Origin: a virus
Lineage: Duplodnaviria; Heunggongvirae; Uroviricota; Caudoviricetes
Virus record (IMG/VR): IMGVR_UViG_2706794683_000008
Length of the DNA stretch: 5,607 nucleotides
Direction: 5' to 3' (one strand)
The notes under the pieces are model-generated. The model was not told the origin of the DNA and searched no databases. It saw only the letters and a list, made by a program, of their open reading frames with translations. Below, one piece after another: positions 447-5,607 of this stretch (its first letter is position 1; each line of letters starts with the position of its first letter). Position numbers and translations under genes: made by a program.

Positions 447-466
447 ACAACCGCAAAATCGGTTGT
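447..466. promoter_or_regulatory. Perfect 7-bp inverted repeat with 6-bp spacer; candidate operator or 5' hairpin at the predicted transcription start
   Basis: ACAACCG (447..453), spacer caaaat, CGGTTGT (460..466); lies just downstream of the candidate -10. Confidence 0.3.
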
Positions 467-682
467 CGGGATTGGCGTCTCGGATAACATCACAACGCAT
501 AGCCGCGTTTGCGGTTTTTTTTGCGTTAAGCATTGCCACATTCGCATTATGGTGGGGCGTGCAGGGGCGGAGAAATCCGCGCCGGGTTTTGTGATGACCG
601 GTTACGCCAACCCTGTACGTCTCACCACCTCCCTGATTGGCGTCAGAGGTGGTGATCATCCAATTAATTGGAGTCATCACAT

Positions 683-2793: not shown

Positions 2794-2800
2794 CATCCAA

Positions 2801-2833
2801 CCGCAGCACGTTCTTGCTTAAGACGTGCTGCGG
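2801..2833. terminator. Hairpin (11-bp perfect stem, 11-nt loop) between the convergent methyltransferase and tfa-fragment stops; possible terminator
   Basis: CCGCAGCACGT (2801..2811) pairs with ACGTGCTGCGG (2823..2833). No U-run directly after it on the plus strand; on the minus strand a T-run follows about 9 nt later. Imperfect copy at 1531..1564. Confidence 0.35.
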
Positions 2834-2847
2834 CATAATCCCAATGA

Positions 2848-2931
2848 TTACTCCCTGACAGGGTTCGTAGGCCACTCAATATCAGGTGCAGTTGATGTAT
2901 CAACACGGTTCAGCAACACCCGATACTTTTT
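2848..2931 (-). pseudogene. Orphan 3' fragment of a Tfa-family gene (27 codons plus stop), fused in frame to the invertase remnant
   Basis: Minus-strand translation [27 protein letters not shown]; TAG at 2932..2934 sits where copy A has a Trp codon (EAWNKYR versus EA*KKYR). Confidence 0.55.
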
Positions 2932-2940
2932 CTAGGCTTC

Positions 2941-3174
2941 CACCACCAGCACGACAAGATGCCGCATACAGTGCCCCAGTCAGTCCAGTTTTCAGACAAC
3001 CAGTGCGTCACCTTTTTGAAGGCGCTTTAAAGCACGTTTTAATCCAGGTCGGCCTGTCCTTGTTCCGCTTAATTTATCTTCAAATATTTGTTCATATCCT
3101 GCACAAACAAGAGCGTTTCGTTGCAGGTCTGTATTCTGGTCATTTGTTGATACCCTTACATAGCCAATCAGCAC
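2941..3174 (-). pseudogene. pin: Serine DNA invertase (Pin/Gin/Hin/Cin family) pseudogene: N-terminal catalytic region only
   Basis: GTG at 3174..3172 with GGGAGA 6 nt upstream. Translation (V)LIGYVRVSTNDQNTDLQRNALVCAGYEQIFEDKLSGTRTGRPGLKRALKRLQKGDALVV has the catalytic-Ser motif. In-frame TGA at 2992..2994 (where Trp is expected) and 2980..2982 (where Arg is expected), then degraded sequence, then fusion to the tfa fragment. The C-terminal DNA-binding domain is absent. Confidence 0.8.
3021..3081. promoter_or_regulatory. Candidate recombinational enhancer (two Fis-like sites) inside the invertase remnant
   Basis: GGCGCTTTAAAGCAC (3021..3035) and GCTTAATTTATCTTC (3067..3081): each 15 bp with G...C ends and AT-rich centre, centres 46 bp apart, 90-150 bp into the invertase coding sequence. 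Placement matches what I recall for Hin/Gin enhancers; the Fis motif is degenerate. Confidence 0.3.
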
Positions 3175-3228
3175 GCTGAATCTCCCGTCCAAAAGCACAA
3201 ATCATGCCATGCAGGCCAGAAACCGCCA

Positions 3229-3254
3229 TTATCTAAAACCTCGGTTTACGAGAA
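3229..3254. other. 26-bp crossover site for a Gin/Pin/Hin-type invertase (gix/pix-like), left boundary of the invertible segment
   Basis: TTATCTAAAACC TC GGTTTACGAGAA; its reverse complement TTCTCGTAAACCGAGGTTTTAGATAA closely matches Mu gix as I recall it (TTCCTGTAAACCGAGGTTTTGGATAA). Lies 55 bp from the invertase start, and the tail-fibre frame opens inside it. Confidence 0.8.
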
Positions 3255-4163
3255 CTCGGCACAAGCGGGGAGAAAATACCGTTACTCAGTACAGCGAATA
3301 CCTGGACTAATCGACAAACATTCAGCGGTGGCCTTTCTGGTGAACTATCCGGCAATGCTTCTACAGCTGCAAAATTAAAAACTGCCAGGAAAATAAGCAA
3401 TGTGGCTTTTGATGGTTCCTCCGATATCACATTAAAAGCAAGTCATGTTGGTGCGTTTGCCTTAGGGAAAACAGGAAGCACCGTTGCGAATGATAAAGCA
3501 GTTGGATGGAACTGGAGTAGCGGAGCCTATAACGCAACTATTAGTGGTGCATCAACGTTAATTATTCATTTTTATATGGGAGAAGGAAGTTGTCCTGCAG
3601 CTCAGTTTCGGATTAATTATAAAAATGGCGGTATTTTTTATCGTTCAGCCCGTGATGGTTATGGTTTTGAAGCCGACTGGTCCGAATTTTACACCACCAG
3701 AAAACCTTCAGCAGGAGATGTTGGTGCACTGCCGTTATCTGGTGGTCAACTGAATGGTGCACTGGGTATCGGAACATCCAGTGCTCTTGGCGGTAATTCG
3801 ATTGTATTGGGTGATAATGACACGGGCTTTAAACAAAAAGGCGATGGTAATCTGGATGTTTATGCTAATAACGTCCATGTTATGCGCTTTGTCTCCGGAA
3901 GCATTCAAAGTAATAAAACCATAAATATTACGGGACGTGTTAATCCCTCGGATTACGGTAACTTTGATTCCCGCTATGTGAGAGATGTCAGACTTGGCAC
4001 ACGAGTTGTTTAGACCATGAAGAAAGGCGTGATGTATGAAAAATCAGGCCATGTAATCACGGGGCTTGGTATTATCGGTGAAGTCGATGGTGATGATCCG
4101 GCAGTATTCAGACCAATACAAAAGTTAATTAACGGAACATGGTATAACGTATCGCAGGTATAA
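3237..4163 (+). pseudogene. Silent, promoterless tail-fibre variable C-terminal cassette with an in-frame amber codon
   Basis: Frame is open from 3237, directly after a TAA inside the crossover site, with no start or ribosome-binding site. Tail-fibre-like translation (...TFSGGLSGELSGNASTAAKLKTARKISNVAFDGSSDITLKA...). TAG at 4011..4013 interrupts a conserved C-terminal region; the same frame continues ...[47 protein letters not shown] to 4163, paralleling the expressed copy (...[18 protein letters not shown]). Confidence 0.7.
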
Positions 4164-4165
4164 TC

Positions 4166-4699
4166 ATGCAGCATTTAAAAAACATTGTCGCAGGTAATCC
4201 AAAAACCGTTGAACAATACCAGCTAACAAAGAATTTTGATGTTATCTGGTTATGGTCCGAAGATGGAAAAAATTGGCATGAGGAATTAAAAAACTTTCAG
4301 GAGGATACAATAAAACTGGCTTACACAGTTGAGGGAATAATTATTGCTATAGACAAGGATGTATCAGCAATTAATCCAGAAGGTTTAAGTGTCGTTGAGT
4401 TGCCTGATATTACAGCAAATCGCCGGGCTGATATTTCGGGCAACTGGATGTTCAAAGATGGTGCGGTGATAAAGCGAACTTATACCGAGGAAGAGCAAAG
4501 GCAACAAGCGGAAAATGAAAAGCAGAGCCTGCTGCAGCTCGTCAGGGATAAAACCCAGCTGTGGGACTCTCAGCTACAGCTGGGCATCATTTCCGATGAG
4601 AATAAACAAAAATTAACCGAGTGGATGCTCTATGCGCAGAAGGTTGAATCCACAGACACCTCCAGCCTGCCAGTAACGTTTCCCGAACAACCAGAATGA
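4166..4699 (+). CDS. tfa: Tail fibre assembly protein (Tfa family), partner of the silent cassette
   Basis: ATG 2 nt after the cassette stop; 177 aa; N-terminus [22 protein letters not shown]... closely parallels the other tfa here; typical Tfa C-terminus. Confidence 0.85.
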
Positions 4700-4702
4700 G
4701 AG

Positions 4703-4730
4703 AAGGCCCGCTATCGGGCCTTAATTTTTA
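4703..4730. terminator. Hairpin terminator between the two convergent tfa genes
   Basis: AAGGCCCG (4703..4710), loop ctat, CGGGCCTT (4715..4722), followed by AATTTTTA on the plus strand; sits between the stops at 4697..4699 and 4728..4730. Confidence 0.5.
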
Positions 4731-5255
4731 TTCAGGCTTTTGTGGCCATTCAGGATTTGCCGTATCCACACGGCTGACCAGAACACTGTAGCGTTCCCAT
4801 GCTTCCAGTCGTGTGCGTTCCTCGTCTGTTGCCATATTCAGCCTGACAGCTCGTTCCAGCGGCTGGATGACTGATTCAGCTTCGGAAAGCAATGCGGCCT
4901 TTTGTGATTCGGCCTGTTGTTGCAGTTCCTGTTCTGTATATTCCCTCTTTACTACTTTACCATCCAGAAACATCCATTTTCCGTTATTGTCTGCGTGACG
5001 ATTTGCCGTAATATCAGGAACTTCAACTATGCTTAGCCCTTCAGGATTAATAGTTGAAACGTCTTTACTGACAGCAACGATGATGTTGTTCTCATCGTAA
5101 GCAATTTTTATGGTGTCTGGCTGAAAATTCTTTTGTTCCTCATACCAGTTTTTGCCATCTTCGCAAAAGAGCCATACCACGCCCGCTTTTTTAGTTAGCT
5201 GGTATTGTTCCGGTGTTTTCGGATTCCCGGCCTTAATATTTTTCAGGTGCATCAT
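4728..5255 (-). CDS. tfa: Tail fibre assembly protein (Tfa family), partner of the expressed tail fibre
   Basis: ATG at 5255..5253, 1 nt after the tail-fibre TAA, with GGGGAG upstream; translation [22 protein letters not shown]...[13 protein letters not shown]. The track ORF beginning at 5291 is an upstream in-frame extension. Confidence 0.85.
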
Positions 5256-5256
5256 C

Positions 5257-5607
5257 TTAAACACTCCCCACGTTGTACCATATTCCCCCAATCAATTTCT
5301 GAATTGGCCTTCTGGCAACAGTGTCGACAATATCATCCGCATTGCTGTTAATTGCGGCTGTTAAAACATAACCTGACGCATCGCCAAAGCCGTAGTCGCG
5401 CCATACGTTTTTATATTCAATGCTGCCAAGACGAATATCCCGAACGACATGATTATGCAGCCATGTGCTTAACCAGTTGTTTTCCCACACTGAACCATAA
5501 ATATCGCCACTAGACGCAACTTGCGCACCACTTCCCAGCGCAAATTGAGGTAGCCTGAGTTTAACGGACACTCCTTCCTGAAATAGAATGGCATCAGAAG
5601 GAGCTAA
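5257..5607 (-). CDS. Tail fibre protein, C-terminal part (5' end beyond the window); the copy in expression orientation
   Basis: Minus-strand frame is open from the window edge ([12 protein letters not shown]...) to TAA at 5259..5257; C-terminus ...[18 protein letters not shown] parallels the silent cassette. Confidence 0.8.

Follow-up and report, generated by a model that had tools for sequence, protein, structure and literature searches.

Can a tail-fibre switch still be thrown once its own invertase gene is dead, or is it frozen in one orientation? The question is raised by a 5,607-nt scaffold of a tailed virus (IMG/VR record IMGVR_UViG_2706794683_000008; "the window" refers here to this whole stretch), which carries an invertase pseudogene, a crossover site and tail fibre genes between positions 2941 and 5607. 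The initial annotation proposed that the cis elements of this region were apparently intact and that the switch was therefore either frozen or flipped in trans by an invertase encoded elsewhere. We find that the region is very probably a decayed invertible tail-fibre host-range switch of the Gin/Cin/Pin type (Din family), the same element as Phi4 of E. coli EC958, which is dead in the window and inverted in trans where its copies have remained intact. The reading of a dead invertase with flipping in trans is already known and was published in 2014 for the E. coli homologue (Forde et al.).

The element is a lambdoid prophage integrated next to trpA/ompW. In an intact copy, two 26-bp sites lie in inverted orientation, and a serine invertase is expected to recombine them at their central dinucleotide, assisted by a Fis-bound enhancer located in the 5′ end of the invertase gene. 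About 2.9–3.1 kb would be flipped in this way, and the fixed 5′ portion of the fibre gene would be joined to one or other of two alternative C-termini, whose cassettes each include a tfa chaperone gene.

The invertase pseudogene, the crossover site and a putative enhancer

DNA alignment, BLASTP (the remnant translation was compared with Gin, the Phi1 invertase, PinE and Cin) and Pfam all identify positions 2941..3174 (minus strand) as a Gin/Pin-type serine invertase pseudogene. It starts with GTG at 3174 and codons 1–59 are intact, matching Mu gin at 172/177 nt and the EC958 Phi4 remnant at 176/177 nt; the likeness to Phi4 extends over a further 55/57 nt, and the site and leader are identical. 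Two in-frame TGA stops follow, at 2992-2994 (Trp61) and 2980-2982 (Arg65), and the gene is cut after about codon 78 (around 2945), removing most of the catalytic domain, helix E and the DNA-binding domain. The first 60 residues match the Pfam Resolvase profile (E=2.9e-15) over profile positions 2-69 of 145 only, and no HTH_7 domain was found in the remnant. No functional serine invertase gene lies beside the segment, which bears out the pseudogene assignment made initially.

The truncation joins the remnant to a 3′ fragment of a tfa gene (2799..2945, minus strand), which marks the deletion junction that killed pin. This fragment forms a 90% direct repeat with 1529-1676, with a methyltransferase gene between the copies, and RefSeq labels the homologous stretch of EC958 and JJ1886 as "tail fiber assembly protein, incomplete, missing N-terminus". 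The junction is present in 532 of 5426 complete E. coli genomes (at least 80% coverage) and these include both orientations of the segment. The resident invertase of this prophage lineage would have been dead for a long time, as a result of truncation onto the tfa fragment and the two stops.

The pin-proximal crossover site, TTATCTAAAACCTCGGTTTACGAGAA, occupies positions 3229..3254 (plus strand), with the halves TTATCTAAAACC-TC-GGTTTACGAGAA. It is the sole match to the Din-type site pattern in the window, where 0.01 would be expected by chance, and lies exactly where it had initially been placed. The site is in frame with the adjacent fibre cassette, and a TAA in its outer half closes the cassette when silent.

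A putative Fis-dependent recombinational enhancer region can be placed at 3080..3160 from its homology to the N-terminal coding stretch of Hin/Gin and from its position. It lies about 80–160 bp from the centre of the crossover site, which is the published distance, and the stretch shares 97% identity with Mu gin. Genomes whose segment demonstrably inverts carry a remnant with a single base difference here, and only this inversion would imply an enhancer function. Two 15-mers were considered as Fis sites, at 3139-3153 and 3090-3104, but agree poorly with the degenerate Fis consensus and are not claimed as such.

Fibre cassettes and the right-hand edge

Two fibre C-terminal cassettes, each with a tfa gene, are arranged as mirror images. 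Cassette A (3243..4013, plus strand; Pfam gp37_C and gp37_trimer) is a promoterless alternative C-terminal part whose frame is open from the crossover site and ends prematurely at an amber TAG (4011-4013). This codon is CAG in E. coli L022, whose tip is 99.1% identical, and TAG in all eight S. sonnei-type loci. Beyond it, a 48-codon open reading frame (4017..4163, plus strand) represents the severed natural C-terminus: when translated, it matches the terminal stretch of the full-length fibre of L022 (...RVVQTMKKGVMYEKSG...NVSQV). The tfa gene of cassette A (4166..4699, plus strand; 177 aa) is intact, with a full-length match to Pfam Caudo_TAP (E=4.8e-34), and exactly the same protein is present in sister genomes. 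Between the convergent tfa genes lies a GC-rich hairpin (4703..4722; 8 pairs, 6 of them G-C, followed by a T-run), which is likely to be a bidirectional terminator.

The tfa gene of cassette B (4728..5255, minus strand; 175 aa) is also intact (Caudo_TAP, E=7.9e-37) and is called as a gene in all sister loci. Of cassette B itself, which the initial annotation took for an expressed fibre, the window holds only the last 95 codons (5257..5545, minus strand; FALGSG...NVGSV, by comparison with the 918-aa fibre of L002). Similarity to the intact loci L002, L007 and L008 ends at 5545, and from 5546 to the end of the scaffold (5546..5607, plus strand) the sequence is the left end of IS600. In the complete genome L001 the corresponding element (11381-12700) is 99.8% identical to an annotated IS600 and includes transposase Pfam domains; the annotated match is an "IS3-like element IS600 family transposase" in S. 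sonnei plasmids, and its alignment begins at query position 1, equivalent to window position 5546. The window is a short scaffold with IS1 at its left edge and IS600 at its right. Runs of N were considered as gene interruptions and rejected: they are scaffold gaps, and their lengths disagree with the sister genomes.

What lies beyond the edge can be read in five complete genomes of the window type (L001 and L003-L006), which match it at 99.9-100% (exactly for L003-L005). CP104423.1 is an example of a complete genome of this type, and the window organism is probably of the Shigella sonnei type. Past IS600 they carry a lysis/late-gene region on the same strand, and the fibre gene is not continued. 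Neither the second crossover site nor the rest of this gene occurs in the 9 kb or so to the right or in the leftward sequence. The window and the corresponding loci of these genomes also lack the constant 5′ part that should read in frame through the site. With up to 6 mismatches allowed, their 20.5-kb loci contain one site only. A second, inverted site had been predicted some 0.9-1 kb past the right edge; none of the five genomes has it, and in structurally intact relatives it lies about 0.54 kb past the equivalent of 5607. The flanks contain no second inverted site because an IS600-associated deletion very probably removed it, together with the constant 5′ part of the fibre gene and the portion of cassette B that lay upstream.

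The cis elements were therefore not all preserved, since the second site went with this deletion. The classic layout is partly retained, in the pseudogene, the crossover site and the two mirror-image fibre-tip and tfa cassettes; the second site and a complete expressed fibre are missing. With cassette B cut by IS600, with neither a second site nor the remainder of the fibre present and with an amber codon in cassette A, the switch is dead rather than merely frozen. Inversion is impossible in the window genome, which has a single crossover site left (a second is probably absent from the rest of the genome also), and no fibre can be expressed from it. The window copy is a relic rather than a complete switch held in one orientation.

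Inversion of intact relatives

In contrast to the window, L002, L007, L008 and the ST131 loci carry two inverted 26-bp sites with the same core dinucleotide. In L002 and L007 the second site is 2.9 kb away from the first. S. sonnei AR_0030 is among the intact relatives. Intact fibres of 918 aa (L002), 875 aa (L008) and 941 aa (JJ1886) read through the site as ...VIEYLGL(R/Q)E..., and both L008 and JJ1886 have the same cassette A as the window fused to the N-terminal part of the fibre.

These relatives occur in both orientations, with the exchange at the site core. In L008 (S. sonnei ATCC 29930) the segment is inverted with respect to L002 and the half-sites are swapped reciprocally, which places the exchange within the central 12 bp. 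Among ST131 strains, EC958, 4/4, U13A and the O25b chromosome have one orientation while JJ1886, 4/0, U12A and the O25b extra contig have the other, again with reciprocally swapped half-sites. Flipping the segment in silico at the core makes 4/0 identical to 4/4 and U12A identical to U13A (100.000% over 11,644 bp, dead invertase included). Cassette A was found beside the remnant in 374 genomes, some of whose loci may have an intact invertase with a cassette A-like sequence, and the ST131-type cassette B in 143. The reciprocal half-site swaps, between ATCC 29930 and its sister and between ST131 strains with otherwise identical loci, strongly support the view that structurally intact copies of the locus are flipped in trans. 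This alternative of the initial annotation is thus well supported for intact copies, whereas the window copy is neither frozen nor flipped.

Intact homologues that might supply the enzyme do exist elsewhere: Din-family invertases are encoded by Phi1 in EC958 and by a P2-like prophage in U13A. The related invertase that would still invert intact copies may be one of these P2-like prophage invertases of EC958 and U13A. The suggestion that U12A-U15A are devoid of any other invertase, based on one matching place per record, was rejected, U13A having the intact, more divergent P2-like prophage enzyme. For Phi4, Forde et al. 2014 (PMC4134206) noted that the invertase is severely truncated, that inversion must occur in trans, possibly via the Phi1 invertase, and that both orientations are present in PacBio reads, with adapters and hairpin artefacts checked. 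Cross-complementation by prophage invertases is documented in other systems: PinQ and PinR as well as PinE flip the P segment of e14 (Kirigo et al. 2025, PMC12529663) and Fin of Fels-2 acts in trans on the Salmonella Hin segment. A trans-acting enzyme for the S. sonnei genomes was sought and not identified, either among the 2,405 relatives that the Phi1 invertase yielded in a protein search or by tblastn of Cin against plasmids, where no Shigella was among the leading organisms. One intact relative of 190 aa (P0109), which carries an S. sonnei label, comes from a Mu-like prophage but occurs only in draft assemblies unrelated to the sister genomes.

Could the switch of the window genome nevertheless be complete, if an IS600-mediated rearrangement had carried the fibre 5′ part and the second site to another place in the genome, so that an invertase acting in trans could invert a large chromosomal segment? 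Rearrangements bounded by IS600 do occur, the region past the IS in L005 being inverted relative to L001, and the window-type genomes were read over 20.5 kb only. Within those loci, however, none of the five genomes has a second site at up to 6 mismatches, and the same-strand lysis/late-gene region that follows IS600 fits a deletion of structural genes better than a translocation. Cassette B would in any case still be split by the IS and cassette A still closed by its amber codon, and we consider such a relocation highly improbable.

Two other explanations concern the relatives. That their orientations arise from RecA-dependent recombination between inverted repeats, and not from a serine invertase acting in trans, could be argued from the short inverted repeat that surrounds the sites, which is imperfect (3 of its 36 bp are mismatched in EC958; Forde et al. 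2014, PMC4134206), and from the two tfa genes, which form a 159-nt inverted repeat of 71% identity. The tfa repeat is not the breakpoint, however, and in every independent case the exchange falls within 12 bp centred on the core dinucleotide of a canonical 26-bp site. Homology of 12 bp is very short for RecA-dependent recombination. Both orientations moreover coexist in single cultures (Forde et al. 2014, PMC4134206; L016/L017), therefore indicating a high switching rate which is typical of invertases, and a RecA origin seems extremely improbable. It is scarcely credible that the switch is frozen everywhere and that the two orientations were either created by misassembly or already established before the invertase died. 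Inverted repeats can mislead assemblers, and the O25b "extrachromosomal" record is a spurious duplicate contig. Nevertheless, all copies in both orientations share the same truncation junction and stops; the truncated founder molecule had a single orientation and descendants in the other must therefore have inverted afterwards. Strains of similar name that come from the same sample sets show no difference other than the flip, and Forde et al. 2014 (PMC4134206) saw both forms in reads after adapter and hairpin checks.

Related systems and the fate of the switch

The closest known system is Phi4 of EC958 (Forde et al. 2014, PLoS One 9:e104400; PMC4134206). The window shares with it the trpA/ompW neighbourhood at the trp operon, the module of ash/Rha, tfa fragment and methyltransferase, the truncated invertase with its junction, the 5′ part of cassette A and the pin-proximal site, which is identical to "Phi4_3prime" in Table 3 of that study. 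The truncated invertase, the site sequence and the trpA/ompW flanks that define a module of the Phi4 type are thus all shared by this copy. The second site of Phi4 is identical in intact S. sonnei-type relatives, whose segment is 2,942 bp compared to 3,106 bp in Phi4. The window copy is more decayed: cassette B is cut by IS600, nothing is left of the second site or of the fibre 5′ part, and the tip of cassette A differs and carries the amber stop.

Likeness to phage Mu includes codons 1-59 of gin with the GTG start, the mirror-image arrangement of fibre-tip and assembly genes, and the gix site (TTCCTGTAAACCGAGGTTTTGGATAA), which resembles that of the window and has the same core dinucleotide. 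In contrast to Mu, the switch resides in a lambdoid prophage. Its invertase is dead and is a mosaic that resembles pinE beyond about codon 68, and its fibre cassettes are unrelated to Mu S/U over most of their length. The P segment of E. coli K-12 e14 likewise has mirror pairs of stf/tfa genes beside a pin gene in a cryptic prophage, and it can be inverted in trans by enzymes that other prophages encode (Kirigo et al. 2025, PMC12529663). Unlike the window, e14 has an intact pinE, both sites, a different core (TT/AA) and a demonstrated function at host level, the blocking of T2 adsorption. The Salmonella H segment belongs with these through hin, of the same recombinase family as the remnant, but it carries a promoter controlling flagellin genes where segments of the window type carry alternative fibre C-termini.

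One might speculate that the 5′ 230 nt or so of the dead invertase are kept by selection for the enhancer, making the Phi4-type segment a "client" switch of co-resident prophage invertases that could serve the host and not the phage, the S. sonnei copy being a later loss. We think this rather unlikely. Phi4-type segments are widespread, occurring in about 10% of complete E. coli genomes and commonly in either orientation, and if the idea were true the benefit to the host might lie, for instance, in effects on the surface or in phage defence, as with e14 StfE2.

As a discovery the switch carries little weight, the system being a textbook one. In practice, such loci cause assemblies to include alternative contigs that are not real and fibre fragments with wrong annotation. 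They also illustrate that the invertase of one prophage can drive rearrangements in another, defective prophage. In the window genome, of S. sonnei type, the IS600-associated deletion and the amber codon of cassette A would together have killed the switch, and the window would represent an end stage of prophage decay in IS-rich Shigella genomes, with a pseudogene, a nonsense mutation and an IS600-associated deletion in a single locus.

Organization and decay of the switch

The window contains a single match to the Din-type crossover site pattern, TTATCTAAAACCTCGGTTTACGAGAA at 3229-3254 (0.01 expected by chance), exactly where the initial annotation had placed it. Cassette A, the C-terminal part of a fibre (3243-4013, plus strand), reads in frame through this site and includes gp37-type fibre domains. 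Its tfa gene (4166-4699, plus strand) and the opposite tfa (4728-5255, minus strand) are both full-length and are separated by a GC-rich hairpin (4703-4722). The mirror layout proposed in the initial annotation thus stands for cassette A and the two tfa genes, but the supposed expressed fibre on the minus strand is reduced to its last 95 codons (5257-5545), cut by IS600. Cassette A is itself interrupted: its amber codon (TAG, 4011-4013), common to 8/8 S. sonnei-type loci, corresponds to CAG in E. coli L022, a relative with 99.1% identity in the fibre tip, and a 48-codon ORF (4017-4163) is the severed end of this fibre.

The invertase gene, on the minus strand, begins at 3174 with a GTG start codon as does Mu gin, and matches Mu gin at 172/177 nt over codons 1-59. 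Two in-frame TGA stops follow codon 59 (2992-2994 and 2980-2982), then a short pinE-like stretch with further changes, before the remnant breaks off at ~2945, where the final ~30 codons of a tfa gene take over. Pfam recognizes the Resolvase catalytic domain over its first half only and found no DNA-binding domain, and the description of the gene as a pseudogene is confirmed. The enhancer-equivalent region (~3080-3160) is almost unchanged; its homology, its position and the inversion seen in relatives make it a candidate Fis-dependent enhancer.

To the left, two tfa 3′ fragments forming a 90% direct repeat (1529-1676 and 2799-2945) flank a class I SAM methyltransferase gene (222 aa, 1905-2793). 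The same tfa-methyltransferase module occurs as tfaD-ybcY in the K-12 prophage DLP12. The N runs at 926-1096 and 2357-2577 correspond to 244 nt and 1 nt in sister genomes and are therefore scaffold gaps of arbitrary length, the methyltransferase gene being really uninterrupted. Rfam matches to isrK (447-521, plus strand, 72 bits) and C4 antisense RNA (545-632, plus strand, 76 bits) directly precede ash-like and Rha-family genes (the Rha gene from 683) and mark a P1/P7-type module for antirepressor control at the end of the prophage.

Sister loci and loss of the second site

A look-up of the 177-aa tfa protein retrieved eight complete chromosomes with the locus beside the trp operon (L001-L008), 0/8 of them in the RefSeq E. 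coli set; with a 3-kb query, no complete E. coli genome reaches 80% coverage. One of the eight (L008, CP026802.1) is the Shigella sonnei type strain, ATCC 29930, and the accession adjacent to that of L002 belongs to a S. sonnei plasmid. The window matches L003, L004 and L005 at 100% and L001 and L006 at 99.9-100%, both IS junctions included, and probably derives from S. sonnei. This IS600-truncated form is the majority among the contigs read (these five and 14 similar against three intact). The window is a short scaffold of 5,607 nt. Its left end (1-107), which we take for an IS1 terminus, aligns in L001 with part of a called IS1 transposase gene and the sequence directly beyond it. The right end (5546-5607) belongs to IS600, which begins here: the matching L001 stretch, beginning at the position equal to 5546, is 99.8% identical to annotated IS600 copies.

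Beyond IS600, the five complete window-type genomes carry lysis and late genes of a lambdoid prophage; continuation of the fibre gene is absent in 5/5. A second inverted crossover site had been expected 0.9-1 kb past the right edge. A search allowing up to six mismatches detected one site, and no second, in each 20.5-kb locus of these genomes; in intact relatives the second site lies at ~0.54 kb. Since neither the fibre continuation nor a second site is present, the upstream part of cassette B, the second site, the constant 5′ fibre part and the tail genes are gone from this neighbourhood, which fits an IS600-associated deletion. Left with a single site and lacking the 5′ part of the fibre gene, with cassette A stopped by an amber codon and cassette B cut by an IS, the switch cannot work in the window's genome. 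The term classic host-range switch is correct for the kind of system but not for the window copy, whose flank has no second site. L001 and L005 also differ past locus position 12644, where the stretch on the far side of the IS600 copy runs in opposite directions and is bounded by a second IS600 copy, indicating IS600-mediated inversion in the neighbourhood.

Inversion of intact copies carrying the dead invertase

L002 and L007 retain a complete switch in the orientation of the window. Their second site, read in the orientation of the first, is TTATCGAATACC-TC-GGTTTACAGGAA; it is located 2.9 kb from the first, ~0.54 kb past the equivalent of 5607. In L008 the segment is inverted and the fibre 5′ part is joined to cassette A, while the pin remnant is 99.85% identical to that of the window with the same truncation. 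Differences at positions 6, 9, 22 and 23 tell the four half-sites apart and serve as exchange markers. In L008 the outer half-sites are unchanged and the inner ones reciprocally swapped, so that exchange took place inside the central 12 bp, around the core dinucleotide. A conservative serine-invertase reaction leaves just such a signature, which homologous recombination can hardly explain.

The locus was previously described as prophage Phi4 of E. coli EC958, in which a segment of 3,106 bp is invertible and PacBio reads yielded contigs of the alternative orientation (Forde et al. 2014, PMC4134206); its two site sequences are those found here. The junction between the tfa fragment and the pin remnant is present in 532/5,426 complete E. 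coli genomes (>=80% coverage). A query joining the remnant to cassette A was covered in 374 genomes, a count to which a few loci whose invertase is intact may contribute, and one joining it to ST131-type cassette B in 143. Among the eight ST131 loci compared, cassette A adjoins the remnant, as in the window, in EC958, 4/4, U13A and an O25b:H4 chromosome, and cassette B in JJ1886, 4/0, U12A and, from that O25b:H4 assembly, an additional contig of 32.7 kb. The half-site swap is the same throughout. Once flipped in silico at the core dinucleotide, 4/0 matches 4/4 at 100.000% identity over 11,644 bp, a stretch that includes the dead invertase, and U12A likewise matches U13A. Invertase truncation is a single shared event in a molecule of one orientation; any copy in the opposite orientation must therefore have flipped later, with the invertase already dead.

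The fibre CDS fused to cassette B is a RefSeq pseudogene with a missing C-terminus in four ST131 loci (L010, L013, L015 and L017), whereas three in the other orientation (L011, L012 and L014) have an intact 941-aa fibre; ST131 cassette B may itself be damaged. Assembly GCF_001874485.1 includes the trp-Phi4 region twice (L016, NZ_CP015087.1; L017, NZ_CP015085.1), once in the chromosome and once as a linear record of 32.7 kb, labelled "extrachromosomal", in which the segment is inverted and several frameshifts occur. The linear record is spurious, an alternative-orientation contig that was submitted as a replicon.

Probable action of invertases in trans

Cross-action among Din-family invertases is established: the e14 P segment is flipped by each of PinQ, PinR and PinE, the Hin segment by the Fels-2 enzyme Fin, and both the H and the G segment by PinE (PMC12529663). 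Intact invertases elsewhere, suggested by the initial annotation, are indeed present in relatives. EC958 encodes a Gin-like enzyme in Phi1; U13A has a different allele in a P2-like prophage, with a PinE-like N-terminal part and a C-terminal DNA-binding part closely resembling that of the Phi1 enzyme. An intact 190-aa invertase labelled S. sonnei (P0109) belongs to a Mu-like prophage. In two assemblies the tfa gene beside it is on opposite strands (L024, 4989-5510; L025, 5018-5539), making this another segment found in both orientations.

In E. coli L022 (NZ_OZ040035.1, 4862-11145), the same module of dead invertase, methyltransferase and switch adjoins potB rather than trpA/ompW, and hence lambdoid prophages harbour it at no fewer than two chromosomal sites. 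In L022 the tip of window-type cassette A is undamaged and occupies the expressed position.

In intact copies, an invertase from another prophage would bind both sites, presumably assisted by Fis at the enhancer inside the pin remnant, and the segment would then flip, swapping the fibre C-terminal tip and its chaperone. Flipping in trans, one of the two options first proposed, holds for the relatives, whose inverted copies share the dead invertase, but not for the window copy, with no second site in its flank. Flipping of a switch with a dead invertase is ordinary and was already known (Forde et al. 2014, PMC4134206); what the present analysis adds is solely the population-level and half-site evidence.
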